46,307 nt of DNA from a virus (IMGVR_UViG_2721755721_000003:1-46307); one strand, 5' to 3'; numbered from the stretch's first letter, positions 1,765 through 21,549 are shown. Notes: generated by a model not told the origin, from the sequence alone. A program made the numbers and translations.

Positions 1765-2007
1765 TTACTTCCTTTTCATGGCTCGTAATTTTTTCAGATG
1801 AGCTTCCTGCTCTGTTTCTGCCAGAATTTGTCGGTATTCCTGGTGATCGATCCGTTCAAACAGTTCATTAAAATCGTTTATTTTTACCGACTGTGTTCGC
1901 CCATCCATTCTTCTGTACAACACGATATTATTTATGCAGCGAATAATTTTTACCGGGTAACCGGCACTGTCGGTATACAGTTGCCCTTGATTAATCAAAA
2001 CGAACAT
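1765..2007 (-). CDS. Hypothetical protein (80 aa)
   Basis: ATG at 2007 preceded on the minus strand by an AGGAG ribosome-binding site; part of the minus-strand early-left operon. Confidence 0.5.
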   Translation of the reverse strand: MFVLINQGQLYTDSAGYPVKIIRCINNIVLYRRMDGRTQSVKINDFNELFERIDHQEYRQILAETEQEAHLKKLRAMKRK

Positions 2008-2038
2008 TTTTTCTCCTGTTCCCTGAGTTGTGAGAACT

Positions 2039-2398
2039 TCAGAGCCGTATGTTTGTAGCGGGTTCAATACTGATAATTTCTGCTGAGATAAGCATTCCGG
2101 CAAGCCATAGCTCTCCGATCAAGTTTTCATCCTTGCATTTCACGCCGCCGATATTAATGGTGGCGATGATATCGCGCTCATCCTCGACTTCTTCATAAGG
2201 CAGCGTTTCGTACAGGCTTTCAATAGCGCAACTGATAACATCGAGTCCGGTCAGGTTGCCACCGACAGTGACTTCGAATGTTTCGCGGTATTCCCTTAGC
2301 CCGAAAGTTAATCGAACGGTTTGTTTTGCCATGCGTCCGCATAACGTCAGATTTGGGTCATAGTTCATTATTTGCGGTTGAGTATTATGAGTGTTCAT
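2039..2398 (-). CDS. Hypothetical protein (about 119 aa)
   Basis: ORF with ATG at 2398 (alternative upstream start at 2470 would overlap the preceding gene). Confidence 0.45.
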   Translation of the reverse strand: MNTHNTQPQIMNYDPNLTLCGRMAKQTVRLTFGLREYRETFEVTVGGNLTGLDVISCAIESLYETLPYEEVEDERDIIATINIGGVKCKDENLIGELWLAGMLISAEIISIEPATNIRL

Positions 2399-2438
2399 CT
2401 GCTTTTCCCTTAGCCCGGCGGCCTGCCGGGCATATAAG

Positions 2439-3266
2439 TTATTTAACCTGGATAAAGGGTGTATTGGCACTGCTGGTCATGTATTGCGGCAGTGTGCCGT
2501 TCCATTTATTGATGGCTTCCAGCTCCATAACTCCGGGGTTCTGGCGCAGAGCTTCACCGCGTAAACGAATAGCATCGGCTTCGGCCTGGGCTTTTGTGCG
2601 AATTGCATCTGCCTGTCCGGCAGCCTCCGCACGCAACATGTTGGCTTCCGCTTCGCGCTGTTTTACTTCCTGCTCGCGTTGCAGGGTTTTCTGGTTTGCC
2701 GTGACTTTGGCGTTAATGCTGTCGATAACGGTTGGCGGGTACTCCGGTTTACCTACATAAGACAGGCTCATTACCTGAATACCGATGGGCGTCATTTCTG
2801 CCTGAATATCTTTTAGAGCTGCATCCAGTAGTTCAGATTTGCCACCGTCGATAAATTTATCAGTGGTCATTTTGCTGGCCAGCCGATTTAGTGCATCTGC
2901 TATCTTCTGGCGCAGGTCGGTGTCGGTAATGTCATCCACACCTTTGCGGTAGGTTTGAAACACCGTGGTAACTTTGGATGGATCAACCTTGTAGGCTACT
3001 CCGATGTGGTAACCAATGGTTGTTCCATCGCTCATCTGGAAACTGAATGGATCATCGTAGGTCTTCATCTGCTTAAAGGTCGGGAAGATATAAACTTCAG
3101 TGTTCCAGCCTGTCCAGTAGCGACCAACACCGACCACTTCACCGACGCCTTTGTCGTCGCCAAGTTTGTTGACTTTGATGCCCACATTACCAGGCTCAAC
3201 ACGATCACAACCGACAAGGCCAATGGCAGGCAGAACAATGGCTAAAGAAAAAATAATTTTTTTCAT
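2439..3266 (-). CDS. SPFH/band-7 (prohibitin/HflKC-like) domain lipoprotein
   Basis: N-terminal signal peptide with lipobox (AIGLVGC); SPFH-like core; C-terminal Ala/Glu/Gln-rich coiled coil (QREQEVKQREAEANMLRAEAAGQADAIRTKAQAEADAIRLRGEALRQ). Start overlaps the stop of the upstream gene. Confidence 0.75.
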   Translation of the reverse strand: MKKIIFSLAIVLPAIGLVGCDRVEPGNVGIKVNKLGDDKGVGEVVGVGRYWTGWNTEVYIFPTFKQMKTYDDPFSFQMSDGTTIGYHIGVAYKVDPSKVTTVFQTYRKGVDDITDTDLRQKIADALNRLASKMTTDKFIDGGKSELLDAALKDIQAEMTPIGIQVMSLSYVGKPEYPPTVIDSINAKVTANQKTLQREQEVKQREAEANMLRAEAAGQADAIRTKAQAEADAIRLRGEALRQNPGVMELEAINKWNGTLPQYMTSSANTPFIQVK

Positions 3267-3451
3267 CTTTTATCCTTAGTGAAAGAAAGCCCCTTATAAA
3301 TGGCATAAATGCATGGCGGGGTCAGAAACGCCAGTGCAAAGCCAGAAATTACCGCTACCGTATCCTTCATTGATATCAGAAACGGGACGAGTAATCCGTA
3401 AATGCATGCGATAATTGCCAGTGATATGACTATTCTGAAATAAATATTCAT
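3263..3451 (-). CDS. Small membrane protein (62 aa, two predicted TM helices)
   Basis: Hydrophobic segments IVISLAIIACIYGLLVPFLI and VAVISGFALAFLTPPCIYAIY; strong AGGAGG RBS; stop overlaps the SPFH gene start and its start overlaps the upstream gene stop. Confidence 0.6.
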   Translation of the reverse strand: MNIYFRIVISLAIIACIYGLLVPFLISMKDTVAVISGFALAFLTPPCIYAIYKGLSFTKDKR

Positions 3452-3726
3452 GCTCCTCCTGATATCTTTCTGATTGCCTTTTTCAACTTTTTACTGTTAT
3501 TCACGCTACAGTAAATTTCGGCAATCTCACGTGATAACATTATTTCTCCACTGTTTTTATCTATAGCAACGAGACCGGGATTGTCTCGTATGAGTTTCTT
3601 TATCATTGGCATTGCCATAAAGTCTTCTGGCGTATAGATGCGTGTATGGCGGCGAACGTGTTTTATCACAGGTGTTTTATGTTTTGACTCAACCTGAAAT
3701 ACATTAATTTTATTCTGATTTGACAT
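3448..3726 (-). CDS. Hypothetical protein (92 aa)
   Basis: ORF translationally coupled (ATGA overlap) to the small membrane protein gene; no recognisable motif. Confidence 0.5.
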   Translation of the reverse strand: MSNQNKINVFQVESKHKTPVIKHVRRHTRIYTPEDFMAMPMIKKLIRDNPGLVAIDKNSGEIMLSREIAEIYCSVNNSKKLKKAIRKISGGA

Positions 3727-7517: not shown

Positions 7518-7905
7518 TCACTCAACATCAATAACGGGGAGCTGTTTCGCATAAAACGGCTCTGAAACATCCAAGAACAGTTCTAAAGATATCAGCAGCT
7601 ATATGATCATTTCAAGACCAAATATTGATTCTGCAATTTCGGGACGTTACACTGTCTCTGCACCTTATAAAGCGGGTGCCGGGCGTGGAAACCCGAAATT
7701 CAATATAGAGCACAACCGCGCTCATGCGGTTTTTTCGTGTCATGAGCATCGTTACGCCCAAATTATGGTGGGGCGTGCAGGGCCAACTTCGGTTGGGCCG
7801 GGTTCTATGTTGACCGGTATTTCCACCCCTGTACGTCTCACCACCTATATGGTCGTGGAAAGCCTTGGTGGTGAGTTCATTGAATTCAACATAGGGGCTG
7901 TCACC

Positions 7906-8457
7906 ATGACTACTCTCCCAACCCAATCTCGCCCTGAAATCACGATTATCAATGGTCGCGTTGTCACCACATCTCTTGCAGTAGCTAATTACTTTACTAA
8001 ACGGCATGAGCGGGTTTTAGATAGAATTAGAAACCTCGAATGTTCCGCTGAATTTACTGAACACAATTTTGTGTTAAGTGAATACACCGACGCATCAGGC
8101 CGCAAACTCCCTTGTTACCAAATCACCCGCGACGGTTTTGCGTTTCTTGCCATGGGCTTCACTGGTAAACGTGCTGCCCAGTTCAAAGAGGCATACATCA
8201 ACGCCTTTAACCAGATGGAGAAGAATTTATCTGGTGCTGACGCGGTTGATATGTCAGCTGTCGCACGAAACGCCAGAGGCGTATACCTGCATTTGCGTGA
8301 AATCCATCAAATCTGGACAAGCCAGCTTTATCCAATGCTTAAGGCCGTTGAATCTCCGCTGGCTAGCAAACTGTACGACCGTGTTGGTGATGCTGTTTTT
8401 GGCGCTGCACTTGTTGATTCCAGGCTGAATGGTTCTGACAAGGAGGTTCGCCCATGA
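7906..8457 (+). CDS. Second Rha-family-like regulatory protein (183 aa)
   Basis: Motif VTTSLAVANYFTKRHERVLDRIRNL resembles the Rha N-terminal domain; ATG at 7906 with RBS; the upstream part of the 284-aa track ORF is judged non-coding. Confidence 0.55.
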   Translation: MTTLPTQSRPEITIINGRVVTTSLAVANYFTKRHERVLDRIRNLECSAEFTEHNFVLSEYTDASGRKLPCYQITRDGFAFLAMGFTGKRAAQFKEAYINAFNQMEKNLSGADAVDMSAVARNARGVYLHLREIHQIWTSQLYPMLKAVESPLASKLYDRVGDAVFGAALVDSRLNGSDKEVRP

Positions 8458-12736: not shown

Positions 12737-13756
12737 ATGCATTCAATATCGTTTGCTGAGGTGACCGTGAGAGCACTGCTGACCCCTGAAATTGCCCCGC
12801 GTATGGGGATTGTATTGTTCAGGCCCGGTTCAGAGCTGATGCCCCTGTTTATGCAGGGGCGTGTCCTGCTGGAGCCTGAGCCGGAACGTTATTCATCTTT
12901 CGCCAGCGGTGCCGTTCCGGCAGCATCACAACCGCTGGCGGATGATCCTGCCGTTCGGGCCGTGTTCCGCAATGAGGCAGTTATTCGTTGTACTGGTGGG
13001 GTGGAATGTCTTGAAAGCTGGTTACTTCGTGAAAAGGGCTGTCAGTGGCCTCATTCCGGATGGCACAGCGAGAACATAACCACAATGCGGCACGCGCCGG
13101 GTGCAATCCGTCTGTGCTGGCACTGTGACAATCTTCTCCGTGACCAGTTCACGGAACGGCTGGAAGCAATGGCAACGGATAACTGTGCCCGCTGGGTGTT
13201 ATCTGTTGTGCGCCGTGATCTTGGTTTTGATGACAGTCACGTTGTGACAATGCCGGAACTGTGCTGGTGGCTGATTCGTAATGACCTGGCGGATGCCTTA
13301 CCGGAAAGTGCAGCCCGTAAGGCACTGAGATTACCGAAGCCTGTTGTGCCGTCTGTCACCCGGGAAAGTGACCTTGTGCCTTCGGTTACTGCCACCAGCA
13401 TCATCCAGGATAAGGCGAAAAAGGTGCTGGCGCTGAAAGTGGATCCGGAGTCGCCGGAGTCTTTTATGTTACGCCCAAAACGTCGTCGCTGGGTTAATGA
13501 AAAGTACACGCGCTGGGTTAAGACGCAGCCGTGTGCATGTTGTGGTAAGCCAGCCGACGATCCTCATCACCTGATTGGTCATGGTCAGGGTGGAATGGGT
13601 ACAAAAGCGCATGACCTTTTTGTGTTGCCTTTGTGCAGAAAACACCATGACGAACTGCATGCGGATACCGTGGCATTTGAAGAGAAGTATGGTTCCCAAC
13701 TGGAGCTGATATTTCGTTTTATCGATCGCGCGCTGGCGATAGGTGTGCTGTCCTGA
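12737..13756 (+). CDS. DUF968-like prophage protein with C-terminal HNH-like zinc-finger motif
   Basis: C-terminal CACCGK...[10 protein letters not shown]...CRKHHDELH pattern; occupies the nin-region position upstream of Q. Confidence 0.65.
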
Positions 13757-13773
13757 TTTTGTGGAGAAAGTTG

Positions 13774-14166
13774 ATGCGTGATATTCAGATGGTTCTCGAA
13801 CGCTGGGGAGCATGGGCGGCAAATAATCATGAGAATGTTAGTTGGTCGCCAATTGCTGCGGGGTTTAAAGGCCTCATCCCCTCAAAAGTAAAATTTCGAC
13901 CGCAATGTTGCGATGATGATGGTCTTATCATTAGTTCAGTTATGGCAGTTCTCAAGAAAAAGGAACCATATCAATACCAATTACTGGAAATGTATTATGT
14001 ATATGGGATCACATTACGAGCGTTAGGGGTGAAAATGGGGATATCGCTTAATCAAGTTGTTATTAGATTGCAGAAAGCTGAAGGGTTTGTTGAAGGGTGT
14101 CTGGCAATGCTCGAGGTATCTTTAGAAATGGATTGCTATATGAATCACGAAAATGATTCAAGATAA
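13774..14166 (+). CDS. Q: Late-gene antiterminator Q (phage 82 / QuuD-like family)
   Basis: Begins [20 protein letters not shown]..., which I recognise as the N-terminus of the small Q family of E. coli lambdoid prophages; internal Cys pairs; RBS GGAGAAAG before ATG 13774. Confidence 0.75.
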
Positions 14167-14232
14167 ATGAACAGTTACTAGTTATATTTTACAGTAATCT
14201 CCTGATGATACACGTTCAGCAGGAGGTTATTT

Positions 14233-14850
14233 ATGAATCAAAATGTAAGACACATATTGCTGGATGCAATTGAAAATAAGAAATCTTTAACGGTAATTTA
14301 CTTAGGAGGTAGTCAGCCAGGAACATTGAGAGATATATCTCCGATAAGCATATCAGAAGATAAACTTAGGGCAAGATGCCATAGTACTAATGCTGTAAAG
14401 TTTTTTAATATTGGGAAAATACAACTACCTAGTGACTCGTCCATGATAACTGTGCCATATGGAAGCTTAGAGCTTAAAGTTTATGAGACGATGCAGAGTG
14501 TGTATGAGGACTTTCATAGCCTGTATCCGGAAGGTCGATGGGGAGTTGAATTTAATGATCATGAATTTGCTCTATTTGATTTTTTCAAAAATGGAAAAAG
14601 AAAAAAAACAGCATTTATGGCAATTCAGTTTATGGAAAGACATGAGGATGAAACAAGAACGGAGATAACAATTGATGTCAGTCTATCAGGTGTTGTGATT
14701 TCGGAGGGAGCCAGAACACCTAAAAGACGTCCGTGGGTTGTGACTGGTCCCGGGCGTGGAGAGCTAAGAACTTATTCAACGTTAGACAAAGCTGCTACAG
14801 AGTTTTTTAAGCGACTTTCATTGATGGTATCTATGGCGATTGAAACATAA
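14233..14850 (+). CDS. Uncharacterized 205-aa protein with possible N-terminal WYL-like domain
   Basis: Residues about 15-65 (LTVIYLGGSQPGTLRDISPISISEDKLRARCHSTNAVKFFNIGKI) resemble the WYL-domain pattern; C-terminal half unassigned; AT-rich gene immediately after Q. Confidence 0.55.
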   Translation: MNQNVRHILLDAIENKKSLTVIYLGGSQPGTLRDISPISISEDKLRARCHSTNAVKFFNIGKIQLPSDSSMITVPYGSLELKVYETMQSVYEDFHSLYPEGRWGVEFNDHEFALFDFFKNGKRKKTAFMAIQFMERHEDETRTEITIDVSLSGVVISEGARTPKRRPWVVTGPGRGELRTYSTLDKAATEFFKRLSLMVSMAIET

Positions 14851-14943
14851 GGGATATAAAGATACCGAGGAAATGATTTGTGTTATAACAAAAACCATCT
14901 TAATCTGTTAAGATTGGTCACTCCGTCATACAGCTTAAACCTG

Positions 14944-14961
14944 CCGCCTGGCGGGTTTTTT
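14944..14961 (+). terminator. Weak intrinsic-terminator-like hairpin plus T-run downstream of the 205-aa gene
   Basis: CCGCC-TG-GCGGG followed by TTTTTT at 14956-14961; short stem, low confidence. Confidence 0.3.
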
Positions 14962-15083
14962 ATGACTGAAATCGCGTCAGTACAGTAAACGCGCTGGTGG
15001 CGGTGAATACCTGTCTTTCAGCTTGCTGGCTTTTTCGACAAGAGTTATTGGTGTGTCACGTTAACCGGAAAAGGGAAAAAGAC

Positions 15084-15281
15084 ATGCTAAAACAGCAGGA
15101 TATGACAGAAACCGCCAGAGTGGTGTTTAATGAATTAAGCGTTACCGAACCGGCGACAGTCGGGGAGATTGCGCAGAATACTTACCTTTCACGCGAACGC
15201 TGCCAGTTAATACTGACCCAGCTGGTTATGGCGGGTCTGGCAGACTATCAGTTCGGTTGTTACAGACGCCTTCCGCAGTGA
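15084..15281 (+). CDS. Small putative winged-helix DNA-binding protein (65 aa)
   Basis: ATG 15084 with AAGGGAAAAAG RBS; segment TVGEIAQNTYLSRERCQLILTQLVMAGLA resembles a winged-helix recognition helix. Confidence 0.45.
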   Translation: MLKQQDMTETARVVFNELSVTEPATVGEIAQNTYLSRERCQLILTQLVMAGLADYQFGCYRRLPQ

Positions 15282-15308
15282 AGGCTTTTTTATTTGTGGT
15301 AAATGGGC

Positions 15309-15339
15309 GGCTGGTGGGTGTTAGGGGCACCCACCAGCC
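15309..15339. promoter_or_regulatory. Perfect 12-bp inverted repeat hairpin (GGCTGGTGGGTG / CACCCACCAGCC, 7-nt loop)
   Basis: Seen directly at 15309-15339 between the small HTH gene and the methyltransferase gene; no T-run follows. Confidence 0.4.
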
Positions 15340-15432
15340 ATCTGCTCATGCGTTGGGGTCACAAGCAAACCTCAGGCCCATCTGCTTTGCGCAAAAGCGG
15401 TATGAGCCTATCAGAGAAGTGCTTATTGATCT

Positions 15433-16482
15433 ATGGCTAATACTGTAAAAATATCCAGTTGTGAGTTAATCAACGCCGACTGCCTGGAATTTATCCGGTC
15501 GTTACCCGAAAATTCTGTTGACCTGATAGTCACGGACCCGCCGTACTTTAAAGTGAAGCCTGAGGGCTGGGATAACCAGTGGAAGGGCGACGATGATTAC
15601 CTGAAGTGGCTGGACCAGTGTCTGGCGCAGTTCTGGCGGGTGCTGAAACCTGCCGGAAGTCTTTACCTGTTCTGTGGTCATCGCCTGGCATCTGATATCG
15701 AAATCATGATGCGTGAACGCTTCAGTGTGCTGAACCATATTATCTGGGCGAAGCCGTCCGGACGCTGGAACGGATGCAACAAGGAAAGCCTGCGGGCGTA
15801 TTTCCCCGCCACAGAGCGCATTCTGTTCGCGGAACATTATCAGGGGCCGTATCGTCCGAAAGATGCCGGGTATGAGGCGAAGGGCAGGGCACTGAAACAG
15901 CATGTGATGGCCCCGCTGATTGCTTACTTTCGTGATGCGCGCGCTGCCCTGGGGATAACGGCAAAACAGATTGCAGATGCCACAGGAAAGAAAAACATGG
16001 TGCCGCACTGGTTCAGTGCCAGTCAGTGGCAGCTACCGAACGAAAGCGATTATCTGAAATTACAGTCGCTGTTTGCCCGGGTGGCAGAAGAGAAACATCA
16101 GCGCGGGGAACTGGAAAAGCCACACCACCAGCTGGTCAGCACATACAGTGAGCTGAACCGGCAGTATATGGAACTGCTGAGTGAATATAAAAATTTGCGG
16201 CGGTATTTCGGTGTGACGGTGCAGGTGCCGTACACCGATGTGTGGACGTATAAACCGGTGCAGTACTATCCAGGGAAACATCCGTGCGAAAAACCGGCAG
16301 AAATGCTGCAGCAGATAATCAGCGCAAGTAGTCGTCCTAGTGATCTGGTTGCGGATTTTTTCATGGGGTCGGGTTCAACGGTAAAAGCGGCGATGGCACT
16401 GGGGCGTCGTGCGATTGGTGTTGAGCTGGAGACCGGACGTTTTGAGCAGACAGTCAGGGAAGTTCAGGATTTAATCGTTTGA
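15433..16482 (+). CDS. DNA N6-adenine (or N4-cytosine) methyltransferase, DPPY-motif family
   Basis: Motif IVTDPPY near the N-terminus; 349 aa; no adjacent restriction endonuclease candidate. Confidence 0.85.
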   Translation: MANTVKISSCELINADCLEFIRSLPENSVDLIVTDPPYFKVKPEGWDNQWKGDDDYLKWLDQCLAQFWRVLKPAGSLYLFCGHRLASDIEIMMRERFSVLNHIIWAKPSGRWNGCNKESLRAYFPATERILFAEHYQGPYRPKDAGYEAKGRALKQHVMAPLIAYFRDARAALGITAKQIADATGKKNMVPHWFSASQWQLPNESDYLKLQSLFARVAEEKHQRGELEKPHHQLVSTYSELNRQYMELLSEYKNLRRYFGVTVQVPYTDVWTYKPVQYYPGKHPCEKPAEMLQQIISASSRPSDLVADFFMGSGSTVKAAMALGRRAIGVELETGRFEQTVREVQDLIV

Positions 16483-16531
16483 AACGGATGAGATTGCAGT
16501 ATTAATTCCGTAACGTTATTATTCTGCGCGC

Positions 16532-16603
16532 GGCCCTTTAGCTCAGTGGTGAGAGCGACTCATAATCGCCAGGTCGCTGGTTCAAATCCAGCAAGGGCCA
16601 CCA
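16532..16603 (+). tRNA. tRNA with CAU anticodon (Ile2/Met type, ileZ-like), atypically short
   Basis: Acceptor stem GGCCCTT/AAGGGCC, T-arm GCTGG-TTCAAAT-CCAGC, CCA end, anticodon loop CTCATAA; about 4 nt shorter at the D-arm/anticodon-stem junction than the E. coli tRNA-Ile2 I recall. Confidence 0.6.
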
Positions 16604-16610
16604 TCACAAA

Positions 16611-16690
16611 CCGCCATTAGCTTATCAGGAAGAGCAGACGACACGATAACAGGGTTGTTGGTGCGGGGGCGGGTCCCCGATGGCGGTCCA
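16611..16690 (+). pseudogene. Degenerate tRNA-like element (possible decayed arg tRNA)
   Basis: Perfect 7-bp acceptor-type pairing CCGCCAT/ATGGCGG followed by T-CCA; D-arm-like GCTT...GAGC; no canonical anticodon or T loop found by hand. Confidence 0.3.
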
Positions 16691-16703
16691 TTATCGGTAT
16701 TCA

Positions 16704-16780
16704 GCGTTGTTAGCTCAGCCGGACAGAGCAATTGCCTTCTAAGCAATCGGTCACTGGTTCGAATCCAGTACAGCGCGCCA
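16704..16780 (+). tRNA. tRNA-Arg (anticodon UCU)
   Basis: Canonical cloverleaf: acceptor GCGTTGT/ACAGCGC, D-arm GCTC...GAGC, anticodon stem ATTGC/GCAAT with loop CTTCTAA, T-arm ACTGG-TTCGAAT-CCAGT, encoded CCA. Confidence 0.85.
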
Positions 16781-16914
16781 TATTCATTCTTCCAGATTCC
16801 TTTCGGCAGAGCCTTATACTGAAATATACCTGGCTCAGGATATTGTTGAAAATATTATATGTTTGTCAAAAATAAAAGTTCTGTTAAGTGTTGATTGAGT
16901 GTTTGTTATACGGT

Positions 16915-17244
16915 CTAATGGTTTTTTCAGCATTAAATATTTATCATTCATATGGTGTGGGTAGAGTGAATATTGATGAGGCGTCGGGGTGTTTCATCCT
17001 TAGGCAGCGTATTGATATAGTCAATGCAGAACGAGCAAAGGCCTTCAGCCGTTTGACAGTTTTGTTCTGTACTCCTGATCGTCTTTCGGGAAGAGACGTT
17101 ATTATTCTGAATAGTGATGCTATACAGAGGGTTTGCGATGAGTTCATGGTGGCTAATTCAGAATTATTTGCTCTTGTTCAGGAGTACAACAGAATAGCCA
17201 GGACCTGTGGTATGGATGAACTTCGGATTACTCATCTGGGGTAG
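16915..17244 (+). CDS. Hypothetical ORF in the stx-equivalent slot (about 109 aa), weak
   Basis: Open frame in AT-rich DNA after the tRNAs; no convincing RBS; start uncertain. Confidence 0.25.
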   Translation, partial: LMVFSALNIYHSYGVGRVNIDEASGCFILRQRIDIVNAERAKAFSRLTVLFCTPDRLSGRDVIILNSDAIQRVCDEFMVANSELFALVQEYNRIARTCGMDELRITHLG

Positions 17245-17636
17245 ATACATATCTGGATTATCACCGGTTACGGTAAAAAGTGATTGCTTACTGTTTTTGT
17301 GAATGGCATTGCAGCAGCCGGATAATGTCAGTGCTGGCTGACGGTGTGCTGGTGGCGGGTGTGGTGGTTGCTGCTTTCCCGTTGCTGAAAAAGAAAACGC
17401 CAGACTGTTAGCCGGGTATCAGTTAGCGGGAGAAATTTTTAAATACTTCACAATTCAGGCGGTTGACTGTTGTCTGGTTTGCGGGGAGTTTGTTAAAAGA
17501 AACTGGCATGGTGAATCCCCCTGTGCGGAGGGGCAATCAGCGAGTAGGTATATGGGATAATCGCGGATTCAGGTGCTGGTACTGAATTCACCGGGAGGCA
17601 CCCGGCACCATGCAATGGCACATAGCGCCACTCTCC

Positions 17637-17668
17637 AGCCCCTCTCCGGAGGGGCTGTTTATATTGAT
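17637..17668 (+). terminator. Rho-independent terminator (AGCCCCTC-TCCG-GAGGGGCT followed by T-rich tract)
   Basis: Perfect 8-bp stem with tetraloop at 17637-17656, followed by GTTTATATTGATTTT. Confidence 0.5.
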
Positions 17669-17691
17669 TTTGTCAGATGTGAGTAAACTCC

Positions 17692-18027
17692 TTATGGACT
17701 TTGTTGTTTTAGCCCATAAGGACATATTTGCAGAGTGCAACGGTTATTAAAGCATTCATTCAATACGTTATCTGTATTTGTAGGGCATTCCTGGCTGTTT
17801 TTGATTAAATTCCAGAATGTTTTATTGAATGGTACTACGTTGTAAATGGTTACAGGCAGCACTTTGTTATTGAGCATGATGCCTGTGTGAGTCAGTGTAA
17901 ATATACTTTCAGGAGGTAAGAAAGCATCCGATTGATACCAGATTATTAATTTTATTTTACTCCATATGACTGAAAAAGATATTCCGCATGATGGCTGGAT
18001 AACTGTATCAATCACAATCCACTTCAT
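17692..18027 (-). CDS. Hypothetical ORF (111 aa), Cys-rich C-terminus, weak
   Basis: Minus-strand ORF in the AT-rich slot between the tRNAs and nanS-p; no family recognised. Confidence 0.3.
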
Positions 18028-18287
18028 TTAGTTTCCTTGTTTATGCCTTGCTGGTGATGTTCTGAAAAGTATAAATGATATTTTTGATTGTAAACCATAG
18101 AGCAGAATTATTTTTCTGATGTTGTTTATTGTTTATTTAAATGCAGGGTGGTTTATATCTCGTCTTGTAGTTTATCCATGCATATCTGCTTGATGATGAG
18201 GTTTTTAATTAAGGTATGGTTTTGTGTTTTTTCTGTATTACATGTCAGGTATTTTAAAGAATCATTTTTCAGATGGTGGAAAGAACC

Positions 18288-20141
18288 ATGGCATTTAAAC
18301 ACTATGATGTTGTCAGGGCGTCGTCGCCGTCAGATCTTGCGGAAAAGCTGACACATAAACTGAAAGAGGGCTGGCAGCCGTTTGGTAGTCCGGTGGCCAT
18401 AACCCCTTATACCCTGATGCAGGCGATTGCAGCAGAAGGTGATGTGGTCGTCAGTGGTGCAACTGAGCCGGAGTGGTACTACGTCATCGTACTGGCCGGG
18501 CAATCCAATGCCATGGCTTACGGTGAAGGGCTTCCGCTTCCGGATTCATACGATGCGCCCCATCCGCGCATTAAGCAACTGGCCCGTCGTAACACAGTGA
18601 CTCCCGGTGGTGAAGTATGCGTATTTAACGACATCATTCCTGCTGACCATTGTCTGCATGATGTTCAGGATATGAGTACGATTAATCATCCCCGGGCTGA
18701 CCTGAGCAAAGGGCAGTACGGCTGTGTCGGACAGGGCTTACATATTGCCAAAAAACTGCTTCCGTATATCCCTAATAACGCGGGGATCCTGCTGGTACCA
18801 TGCTGTCGTGGTGGTTCGGCATTCACCCAGGGCACGGAGGGGACATTCAGCGAGTCCACGGGGGCCAGTCAGGATTCGGCTCGCTGGGGAGTGGGTAAGC
18901 CGTTATATCAGGATCTGCTTTTCCGCACGAAGGCAGCATTGCAGAAAAACCCGAAAAACGTTTTGCTGGCGATATGCTGGATGCAGGGGGAATTCGATAT
19001 GACGAATGCCAGTTACGCCCAGCAGCCAGCAGCATTTCTTGCAATGGTACAGCAGTTCCGTGCTGACCTTGCCGGGCTGGCGGCGCAGTGTCACGGTGGA
19101 AGTCCGGCATCAGTCCCCTGGATTTGTGGCGACACGACATACGCGTGGAAACAAGAACACGGTACGCAATATGAAGTGGTATATGGTGCATATAAAGGTA
19201 AAGAATCCCAGCAGATTTATTTTGTTCCCTTTATGACCGATGGTAGCGGAGTTAATACACCGACAAACAACCCGTCAGAAGATCCTGATATTGCCGGGTC
19301 TGGTTATTACGGTTCGGCATCCCGAACGAACAAAAACTGGGTATCATCAAATCGCCCGACGCATTTCAGCTCATGGGCGCGTCGTGGCATTATTCCCGAT
19401 CGTATGGCAACTGCTATTCTGAACGTAGCCGGTCGCACCTTAGCCTTCATTAGTGGTAAGGCACCGGAAATCAAACCCTCGCCCGGCGGCGACACGCCAT
19501 TGGGGCCGTCTGAAGATGCATCCATACGCACAATCTCCCTGTTGCCGACAGCCGGAGAGGCTGCTGCGCAGGGCTGGACCATTAAGGACGGCGGAATTCA
19601 GTTGTCGGGTGGTGTATTTAAGATCACCAAGCAGAGCAATAAAACCTGGTCCCTGATGCATCCGGTGGATGACGCAGTCTCCCTGCTGACACGGGGTGGC
19701 AGACTGAGCTGTAAGTTTCGACTGTCAGGCGCACTGACCAACAACCAGTTCGGTCTGGGAATTTATCTGTATACCGATGTAGCGTTACCTGACGTCGTGG
19801 CGATGACCGGGACTGGTAACCCGTTCCTGATGTCGTTCTTCACCCAGACCACAGACGGCAAACTGAATCTGATGCATCACAAGAAAGCCGGAAACACAAA
19901 GTTGGGCGAGTTCGGGAATTACAGTAACGACTGGCAGACGCTGGAGCTGGTGTTCACCGCCGGCAGTGCCACGGTTACTCCGAAACTGAATGGAGTGGCT
20001 GGCCCGGCATTCCAGGTCATAAAAGACAGTCTGACAGTGGGACTAAATGCACTGACGCTGACGGATATTACCAAAAATGCAGCGTATGGCGTTGAGATAG
20101 AAAGTCTGGTGCTGGAGATAAATGCACCGGCATCATCATAA
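18288..20141 (+). CDS. nanS: Prophage-encoded sialate O-acetylesterase NanS-p-like protein (N-terminal DUF1737-like region + SGNH/esterase + C-terminal domain)
   Basis: N-terminus MAFKHYDVVRASSPSDLAEKLTHKLKEGWQPFG, which I recognise from NanS-p proteins; position between the tRNA cluster and the holin, as in Stx-type phages; ATG 18288 with RBS. Confidence 0.75.
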   Translation: MAFKHYDVVRASSPSDLAEKLTHKLKEGWQPFGSPVAITPYTLMQAIAAEGDVVVSGATEPEWYYVIVLAGQSNAMAYGEGLPLPDSYDAPHPRIKQLARRNTVTPGGEVCVFNDIIPADHCLHDVQDMSTINHPRADLSKGQYGCVGQGLHIAKKLLPYIPNNAGILLVPCCRGGSAFTQGTEGTFSESTGASQDSARWGVGKPLYQDLLFRTKAALQKNPKNVLLAICWMQGEFDMTNASYAQQPAAFLAMVQQFRADLAGLAAQCHGGSPASVPWICGDTTYAWKQEHGTQYEVVYGAYKGKESQQIYFVPFMTDGSGVNTPTNNPSEDPDIAGSGYYGSASRTNKNWVSSNRPTHFSSWARRGIIPDRMATAILNVAGRTLAFISGKAPEIKPSPGGDTPLGPSEDASIRTISLLPTAGEAAAQGWTIKDGGIQLSGGVFKITKQSNKTWSLMHPVDDAVSLLTRGGRLSCKFRLSGALTNNQFGLGIYLYTDVALPDVVAMTGTGNPFLMSFFTQTTDGKLNLMHHKKAGNTKLGEFGNYSNDWQTLELVFTAGSATVTPKLNGVAGPAFQVIKDSLTVGLNALTLTDITKNAAYGVEIESLVLEINAPASS

Positions 20142-20291
20142 AAAGTGAGCCAGCCAAATGGAAGGTATCGTTAAACTCACCGGTAGTGTCAGTGGGTCGT
20201 CTGAGATGCCTGCATGAGTTATCAGAGCCATCAGTACTTAACTGGTGGCTTTTTTTATTGCTGTCAGCTTCCGGATAACGGGAGACGGGGT

Positions 20292-20507
20292 ATGTACCAG
20301 ATGGAAAAAATCACAACAGGTGTGTCATACACCACGTCAGCGGTGGGAACGGGCTACTGGTTCCTGCAGTTGCTGGACAGGGTTTCCCCGTCTCAGTGGG
20401 CGGCAATAGGCGTGCTGGGGAGTCTGCTGTTTGGGCTGCTGACATATCTGACTAACCTGTATTTCAAAATCAGAGAGGACCGTCGTAAGGCGGCACGGGG
20501 AGAGTAA
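20292..20507 (+). CDS. S: Class II holin, phage-21 S (pinholin) type with dual-start motif
   Basis: MYQMEK... with Met1/Met4 dual starts; two TM segments; near-identical by eye to S21-family holins (…[10 protein letters not shown]…[20 protein letters not shown]). Confidence 0.85.
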
Positions 20508-20511
20508 TTCA

Positions 20512-20862
20512 ATGACTCAAAACTATGAACTGATTGTGAAAGGGATCCGCAATTTTGAGAATAAAGTTACGGTAACTTTAGCGTTACGGGACAAAAAACG
20601 CTTTGACGGTGAAATTTTTGACCTGGATATCTCGCTGGACCGTGTTGAAGGTGCCGCGCTGGAGTTTTATGAGGCAGCAGCCAGAAGGAGCATCAGACAG
20701 GTCTTCATGGATGTTGCTGCCGGGTTATGTGAAGGGGATGAGCAGTCGCCGGAAAAGCGCCCCGTAATTTTAGAGGCGCAGAATGTATGGATAACCTACA
20801 AAGGAAAGCTACCGGGAAGAATTACTGGTTCTCTGAAGACTCCTCCGGAATCACAACCTTAA
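20512..20862 (+). CDS. Hypothetical protein (116 aa) between holin and endolysin
   Basis: ORF with ATG 20512; no family recognised with confidence. Confidence 0.5.
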   Translation: MTQNYELIVKGIRNFENKVTVTLALRDKKRFDGEIFDLDISLDRVEGAALEFYEAAARRSIRQVFMDVAAGLCEGDEQSPEKRPVILEAQNVWITYKGKLPGRITGSLKTPPESQP

Positions 20863-20925
20863 GTCACTGACCGGAACAGATAAACCTGTCCGTGGGCAGA
20901 AACCGATAAATCCTGATAAATATCC

Positions 20926-21459
20926 ATGAACACCAAAATCAAATACGGCCTGTCGGCTGCCGTTCTGGCGCTGATTGCCGCTGGTGCGCCTGCGCCTGAC
21001 ATTCTCGACCAGTTTCTGGATGAAAAGGAAGGTAACCACACCACGGCATACCGTGATGGCGCGGGTATCTGGACCATCTGCCGCGGTGCCATCCTGGTGG
21101 ATGGCAAACCTGTCGTTCCGGGCATGAAGTTGTCGAAGGAAAAATGCGACCAGGTTAACGCCATTGAGCGTGATAAAGCGCTGGCGTGGGTGGAGAAAAA
21201 CATCAGAGTGCCACTGACCGAACCCCAGAAAGCGGGGATCGCGTCATTCTGTCCGTACAACATTGGTCCCGGTAAGTGTTTCCCGTCGACGTTTTATAAA
21301 CGAATTAATGCAGGTGATCGCAGGGGAGCGTGTGAGGCGATTCGCTGGTGGATTAAGGACGGTGGCAGAGACTGCCGTATTCGTTCAAACAACTGCTACG
21401 GTCAGGTATCCCGTCGTGACCAGGAGAGCGCGCTGGCGTGCTGGGGTATCGACAGATAA
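20926..21459 (+). CDS. R: Endolysin, T4-lysozyme-like with N-terminal signal-anchor-release (SAR) segment
   Basis: Gly/Ala-rich hydrophobic N-terminus (YGLSAAVLALIAAGAPAP) then E-x8-D-x5-T catalytic pattern (EGNHTTAYRDGAGIWT); pairs with a pinholin. Confidence 0.85.
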   Translation: MNTKIKYGLSAAVLALIAAGAPAPDILDQFLDEKEGNHTTAYRDGAGIWTICRGAILVDGKPVVPGMKLSKEKCDQVNAIERDKALAWVEKNIRVPLTEPQKAGIASFCPYNIGPGKCFPSTFYKRINAGDRRGACEAIRWWIKDGGRDCRIRSNNCYGQVSRRDQESALACWGIDR

Positions 21460-21549
21460 GCAGAATATTTTGCTGAAAAATGCGGTTTGCTTACACGGAC
21501 GGATAACACGAAATCCTGCGAACTGACAAAAACTAAGTGAATAAAAGTA

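Follow-up and report, generated by a model that had tools for sequence, protein, structure and literature searches.

An iraL-bearing mosaic of cargo modules at the stx position of an stx-negative lambdoid prophage of Escherichia coli

What occupies the position of the Shiga toxin (Stx) genes stxAB in a lambdoid prophage that does not carry them? The question is raised by IMGVR_UViG_2721755721_000003, a stretch of 46,307 nucleotides (hereafter the window, meaning this whole stretch) that represents an stx-negative lambdoid prophage of Escherichia coli. In this section, we focus on an interval of 1507 bases, positions 16781-18287, called here the slot, which lies between the phage tRNAs and a nanS-p-type gene followed by holin and then lysozyme genes. 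The slot is very probably a mosaic of four small modules within the cargo region, namely, the open reading frame (ORF) ORF92, a remnant of tciB, a small RNA (sRNA) of the STnc100 family, and, on the opposite strand, iraL, which codes for an anti-adaptor of RssB.

The order of elements is that of the stxAB locus of phage 933W, where the same tRNA cluster lies to the left of the cargo, and STnc100 and nanS-p to the right, in the same orientation (Table 1). On account of this shared order, ORF92 and the tciB remnant take the position of stx, and iraL takes that of AsxR, both of the latter being on the minus strand. The comparison bears out a preliminary description, made from the sequence alone, in which the slot was regarded as the stx-equivalent position and as a cargo site. 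That description also stated that stx is absent, and this stands. When Stx1A/B of Shigella phage 75/02 and Stx2A/B of 933W were searched by tblastn against the six frames of the whole window, the best E value was 0.5 and no match fell in the slot. No RIP or SLT_beta match from Pfam was obtained on the slot ORFs, none of which is StxA- or StxB-like, and no toxin domain was found in the three main ones (Pfam, NCBIfam, PHROGs) or in two small minus-strand frames (Pfam). The window thus differs from 933W in lacking any StxA/StxB homology, with ORF92 and the tciB remnant there instead. A minimal form of the slot was noticed in the Stx-phage-like phage PPwrbA_EH2201 (L005, 3192-3750), where STnc100 directly follows the tRNAs with neither stx nor other cargo in between. 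With regard to base composition, the slot is AT-rich, as first described, with a GC content of 0.398 against 0.512 in the whole window, though not uniformly: the value is 0.386 for 16781-17311, 0.515 for the DUF3927 ORF that represents the tciB remnant, 0.553 for the sRNA (17477-17666), and 0.328 for the iraL module (17667-18272).

Table 1. Features of the slot and its borders in the window, with the corresponding elements of phage 933W (L012 coordinates)
Feature	Position	Strand	Particulars	Counterpart in 933W
ileZ-like phage tRNA (anticodon CAT)	16532-16603	+	ARAGORN and Rfam; left context of the slot	
tRNA-Arg(TCT), argO-like	16704-16780	+	ARAGORN; Rfam 68 bits; left border of the slot	end of tRNA cluster, 1872
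ORF92	16966-17244	+	phrog_2873; conserved 92-residue core; GTG start at 16966; cargo position 1	stxAB, 1963-3203
DUF3927/TciB-like ORF	17280-17411	+	43 residues; GTG start; 5'-truncated tciB remnant; cargo position 1	stxAB, 1963-3203
STnc100-family sRNA	17477-17666	+	Rfam RF02076; contains hairpin 17591-17605; ends in intrinsic terminator	STnc100, 3278-3483
RefSeq pseudo-coding sequence	17496-17621	-	'hypothetical protein, incomplete'; antisense inside the STnc100 sRNA	
Rho-independent terminator	17636-17668	+	9-bp GC-rich stem 17636-17657, T-rich tail; 3' end of the sRNA	
iraL	17692-18027	-	RssB anti-adaptor of the IraM/IraL/RssC family; 111 residues, 5 Cys; cargo position 2	AsxR, 3485-3537
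iraL 5' untranslated region and sigma70-type promoter	18028-18096	-	transcription start corresponds to 18060	
nanS-p-type sialate O-acetylesterase	18273-20141	+	DUF1737, SASA and DUF6645 (Pfam); 'SASA family carbohydrate esterase' in PGAP; right border of the slot	nanS-p start, 3690

The STnc100 sRNA is recognised over its full length, with a cmscan score of 132.4 bits (gathering score 47; model positions 1-206 of 206; E 5e-29). Its structure in the window comprises a long-range helix formed by GCAUGGUG and CACCAUGC, a CCCCC/GGGGG hairpin, the hairpin at 17591-17605, with the fold CCGGG-AGGCA-CCCGG and a segment energy of -8.8 kcal/mol, and a terminator whose stem reaches -20.3 kcal/mol (RNAfold) and is followed by an imperfect T-tract, TTTATATTGA. 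The structure is conserved, as an alignment of 10 STnc100 copies (RNAalifold) gave 33 pairs with the core helices kept, 6 of the pairs showing compensatory changes. Moreover, published quantitative PCR primers for STnc100 match the window exactly at 17507-17526 and 17580-17599. A simple terminator scan did not rise above chance when taken alone (4 found, 3.1 expected), whereas the covariance-model match lies far above it. The hairpin and the intrinsic terminator had both been noticed in the preliminary description; what it missed was that they are parts of one sRNA, and that the DUF3927 ORF lies upstream. The pseudo-coding sequence that RefSeq places antisense inside the sRNA is probably an annotation artefact.

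The same element is present in 933W, 75 nucleotides after stx2B (207.7 bits), in Shigella phage 75/02, 79 nucleotides after stx1B, in JLK-2012, after tciB, and in CFT073 and O104:H4, with the layout of the window. The STnc100 downstream of stx2B has been equated, or reported to overlap, with the Hfq-binding sRNA EcOnc27/sRNA103 (PMC12370729, PMC12711010, PMC7873438), which in strains Sakai and EDL933 has been reported as a discrete Hfq-binding RNA (PMC7873438, PMC12711010) and whose targets in enterohaemorrhagic E. coli are unsettled. A 2026 preprint relates STnc100 to the PasD sRNAs of enteropathogenic E. coli, located directly upstream of a sialate esterase. Like EcOnc27/sRNA103 of 933W and Sp5, the window copy matches the full-length model, retains the core helices, lies between cargo and nanS-p, and ends at an intrinsic terminator. 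It differs from that of 933W, with which it shares about 71% nucleotide identity, by a shorter internal variable region, by a 3' tail and terminator of another sequence type (mosaic breakpoint at 17614), and by being followed by iraL rather than AsxR. In other respects, in some related prophages STnc100 was observed twice within the same cargo region, the copies being separated by distances from a few hundred bases to 3 kb (L002, 4561-4754 and 5030-5218; L008, 2344-2556 and 5650-5839).

With regard to the stxAB position itself, the plus-strand ORF present there extends in its longest form from 16888 to 17244. It had been described as a weak, unassigned ORF at 16915-17244; the ORF was confirmed, but not this start, since an ATG is found at 16918 and the conserved core begins at the GTG codon listed in Table 1. 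As to its assignment, the protein is a member of phrog_2873 (E 2.5e-58, covering 17-108 of the 108 profile positions), a phage family already catalogued, to which no function is assigned. Its homologues, conserved as far as Citrobacter prophages, share as little as 32% identity with it and have a length of about 91 to 95 residues in every case, and its relatives share the position of the start codon behind a Shine-Dalgarno-like element. When ORF92 is aligned with its L008 homologue (about 57% protein and 68% nucleotide identity), there are no insertions or deletions over 279 nucleotides, and the changes fall mostly on third codon positions (42, compared with 25 on first and 22 on second positions). 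The ratio of non-synonymous to synonymous substitution rates (dN/dS) in frame is 0.28, whereas the two shifted frames give 1.2 and 0.87. These patterns of substitution indicate that ORF92 is a real protein-coding gene under purifying selection.

A confident AlphaFold2 model of ORF92 shows a hairpin of two helices that bears a small beta tip (predicted local distance difference test score 89.8). Foldseek searches of the PDB and BFVD with this model returned only generic helical hairpins (prefoldin, BAR domains, designed bundles), none of them usable (best E 0.12), and a HMMER scan of 1.84 billion representatives retrieved, apart from a few repeat proteins, nothing but small members of the same family. 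A genome-context scan of a collection with one genome per species gave three loci. One can imagine that ORF92 is host-directed cargo, a binder of the helical-hairpin type that the prophage expresses or that is produced in large amounts upon induction, and a second conversion factor beside IraL, but we regard this proposal as unlikely.

The ORF that follows matches Pfam PF13064 (DUF3927) with 92.7 bits (cutoff 25) over profile positions 7-53 of 53, and the TciB-like family phrog_1470 (E 1.5e-11). From 17312 onward, the ORF is homologous to full-length tciB: it retains the 32 C-terminal residues of TciB, after 11 unrelated residues at the N-terminus. A full-length TciB, a small membrane protein, has about 54 residues, with an N-terminal hydrophobic segment and tciA upstream, as in the slot of JLK-2012, where tciA (TerB-like) precedes a 54-residue TciB and the sRNA lies downstream, as it does here. 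The nucleotide identity with JLK-2012 is 92.6% over 17312-17622; the window lacks tciA and the first 22 or so codons of tciB. The alignment points to a remnant left by deletion of tciA and of the 5' third of tciB, and this remnant is probably not functional. Two other loci, L015 (a 63%-identical relative) and L016 (a Citrobacter prophage), show the succession of ORF92, a terminator, and then tciA-tciB.

These three plus-strand modules might be read differently, as one late transcript comparable to stxAB-EcOnc27, with ORF92 as a payload made in bulk on induction only and the sRNA derived from the 3' untranslated region. We consider such a unit possible, though on balance rather doubtful. Its position and orientation are those of stxAB followed by STnc100 in 933W, and ORF92 is also followed by STnc100 in L008, there with the divergent ORF92 mentioned above. 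Furthermore, neither a scan nor reading by eye revealed a good promoter directly upstream of the sRNA. By contrast, in both L015 and L016 a terminator stands directly after ORF92 and before tciA, an indication that ORF92 forms a unit separable from the genes that follow it. In JLK-2012, tciAB and the sRNA are present but ORF92 is absent, and ORF92 could have a promoter of its own in the promoter-like site at 16846-16873.

Returning to the reading of the slot as four modules, several observations weigh against it. No convincing sigma70 promoter was found just upstream of 17477, which leaves the 5' end of the sRNA undefined, and the sRNA may for this reason originate by processing of a longer transcript; the T-tract of its terminator is imperfect (TGTTTATATT). 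The Shine-Dalgarno-like element of ORF92 is weak in the window, and PGAP leaves the gene unannotated in O104:H4 and CFT073. Lastly, the Q region of the window differs from that of its closest annotated relatives, and pR' was not located, there being downstream of the Q-like ORF at 13759-14166 no match to the pR'-qut-tR' of 933W and no convincing promoter. Late expression of the plus-strand parts is therefore read from gene order only, and the read-through proposed below is likewise an inference.

The Q-like ORF codes for 135 residues and resembles the 933W Q antiterminator, a 150-nucleotide stretch being 81% identical to 933W Q; at the Q position, the O104:H4 relative has a different Q of 273 residues. 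A StxS-like leader was considered downstream of this ORF, and was discarded in view of the missing pR'-qut-tR' match and promoter. The next gene, AT-rich and coding for 205 residues (14233-14850), belongs to phrog_8498 and gives a sub-threshold WYL match (E 0.01); RefSeq annotates WYL in related genomes.

The minus-strand gene was described at first as a Cys-rich and unassigned ORF. Its coordinates, length and five Cys were confirmed, but it can be assigned, since the product is 100% identical to the characterised IraL of strain CFT073 (WP_000871291.1), as confirmed by direct translation. It belongs to the family NCBIfam NF007393 (162 bits, cutoff 121, residues 1-110) and matches the N-terminal domain of IraM in PDB entry 8TWD (E 9e-32). 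Among the family collections, only NCBIfam and PHROGs recognise this ORF, for which Pfam has no family. The upstream region was also compared with that of CFT073. The sequence obtained there by rapid amplification of 5' cDNA ends, ACATCACCAGCAAGGCATAAACAAGGAAACCA (PMC4045071), matches the minus strand of the window at 31 of the 32 positions from 18060 to 18029, and the fragment from -100 to +33 that complemented an iraL deletion (PMC4045071) is identical at 130 of its 133 positions. A -10 hexamer, TATACT (18073-18068), and a -35-like hexamer, TTTACA (18094-18089), were assigned by eye. The gene thus falls in the IraL sequence group, defined by at least 95% identity to CFT073 iraL together with the iraL promoter and 5' untranslated region.

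In CFT073, iraL (c1429) is located on the potB island, and the point where its transcription starts was determined with lysogens in log phase (PMC4045071). Hryckowian et al. (2014) observed that IraL raises the level and the half-life of RpoS in log phase in this strain, and that it binds only RssB's N-terminal domain, while IraM contacts both RssB domains (PMC4045071). The iraL mRNA has been detected in CFT073, with an increase at 37 °C (PMC12890032), and it is also increased in a fur mutant (PMC7157518). As the proteins are identical, the IraL of the window would likewise bind RssB and lengthen the half-life of RpoS. 

RefSeq names the gene 'anti-adapter protein IraM', and its product shares 62% identity (66 identical residues over 107), the family and the conserved Cys positions with IraM of E. 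coli K-12 (b1160). It might on these grounds be supposed to act as IraM, that is, to be PhoP-dependent and induced by Mg2+ starvation, and not as the constitutive log-phase IraL. We hold this to be very improbable, since the protein is identical to IraL and not to IraM, the promoter and 5' untranslated region are of the iraL type, the genetic context is unlike the iraM locus at the e14 border, where regulation by PhoP and Mg2+ has been reported in the literature, and the iraL and iraM sequence groups do not overlap (PMC4045071).

The slot as a whole had been described as a late-expressed position. This does not hold for iraL, which is not late-expressed cargo, being encoded on the opposite strand behind a sigma70 promoter of its own, with a start mapped in log-phase lysogens. 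Instead, the gene has the features of a moron: its own promoter, a GC content well below that of the window, and insertion between STnc100 and nanS-p, an interval that in 933W amounts to only 206 nucleotides carrying AsxR. The terminator of the sRNA lies 24 nucleotides beyond the convergent iraL stop codon. A terminator shared by both strands was considered for the hairpin at 17636-17657; its minus-strand version is without a U-tract, which leaves the proposal unsupported, and the iraL module showed no minus-strand terminator of its own with a U-tract.

Taken together, we can propose that iraL is an AT-rich and self-contained lysogenic-conversion gene that would be transcribed against the late operon and be active in the prophage state. 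Its product would bind the N-terminal receiver domain of RssB, which could then no longer hand RpoS to ClpXP, and RpoS levels would therefore rise in growing cells. The sRNA, the same element as that located 3' of stxB in Stx phages, would end at its strong hairpin terminator, which in a lysogen may also stop transcripts from the tRNAs and cargo before they run antisense to iraL and into nanS-p and the lysis genes, whereas during lytic growth Q-modified polymerase would read through it. In the exact position of stxAB, ORF92 is a real gene for a helical-hairpin protein, and the DUF3927 ORF is a leftover of tciB after deletion.

This arrangement is widespread. Many complete E. coli genomes, O104:H4 outbreak strains among them, contain the whole slot of 1507 bases at 100% identity. 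Out of 5426 complete E. coli genomes, 863 have at least 80% of the slot, and the identity reaches 99% or more in 853 records. That the interval is a decayed non-coding spacer left by the loss of stx or other cargo, with chance frames and hairpins serving only to stop transcription, is scarcely credible and already largely refuted: the AT-rich stretches, the one clear deletion scar (truncated tciB, missing tciA), the absence of PGAP annotation over 16781-17279, and simple terminator and promoter scans that do not exceed shuffled expectation would suit it, but IraL is identical to a functionally tested protein and has its promoter, the Rfam match to STnc100 is highly significant, ORF92 is under codon-level purifying selection with homologues of constant length, and the slot is conserved at high identity across the genomes just mentioned.

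The mosaic character of the four modules is seen in the phages that match different parts of the region. Positions 16781-17614 are 98.7% identical to phage mEp460_ev081, 17312-17622 resemble JLK-2012 at the level given above, and 17448-18300 are about 96.5% identical to vB_EcoS-640R1. Within the complete-genome collection, no genome covers 13000-21500 at 99% identity or more. The closest arrangement is that of the phi-potB prophage of CFT073, which has in the same order tRNA-Ile/Arg/Arg, DUF3927, the pseudo-coding sequence, STnc100, iraL, the DUF1737/esterase gene, holin and lysozyme, the slot with its flanks being about 97% identical overall. The two prophages differ in their flanking backbone and in the Q region; in CFT073, the esterase is truncated and an IS200 is present upstream of the tRNAs.

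Further observations concern other elements of the window. In the D-arm/anticodon-stem region, the ileZ-like tRNA(CAT) lacks 4 nucleotides (GAGC) that are present in its copies in 933W, O104:H4 and mEp460_ev081, and its Rfam score is 58.2 bits, versus 72.5 bits in these relatives; it may be a damaged tRNA or reflect a sequence error. The middle tRNA position (16611-16690), occupied by argN in 933W, holds a divergent tRNA-like sequence of about 80 nucleotides that keeps the acceptor and T-arm ends, is called by neither ARAGORN nor Rfam, and is present as the same variant in mEp460_ev081. In the 150-nucleotide gap between nanS-p and holin (20142-20291), a strong 12-bp hairpin at about 20224-20252 is followed by a T-run; PasA/PasC sRNAs have been reported at this position, and Rfam 15 gave no match in the gap. 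Farther away, an isrK Hfq-binding RNA (7660-7736) and a C4 antisense RNA (7761-7848) stand in tandem within or upstream of a 284-residue ORF (7603-8457), an organisation that resembles a control region of the ImmI/antirepressor type. A full-length Rfam match to the IS009 sRNA lies at 45702-45900 (214.5 bits, gathering score 117). Lastly, a terminator-like hairpin at 15268-15285 (GCCTTCCGCAGTGAAGGC, then TTTTTTATTT) overlaps the end of a small winged-helix-like ORF (14997-15281) upstream of a DNA methyltransferase gene.

In its content, the slot is ordinary: its main parts are known or catalogued, and only ORF92 is uncharacterised. The slot offers no discovery, because the same layout has already been studied in CFT073. 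For annotation, the analysis is of use in three respects: the label IraM in RefSeq stands on a gene identical to iraL, a pseudo-coding sequence is placed antisense to an sRNA, and ORF92, which lies outside the two RefSeq/PGAP proteins of the slot (DUF3927 family protein and the so-called IraM), is left out. With regard to the biology of these phages, the seemingly empty stx position is not empty, but belongs to a common type of E. coli prophage that carries an IraL expected to stabilise RpoS together with the sRNA normally located 3' of stxB.

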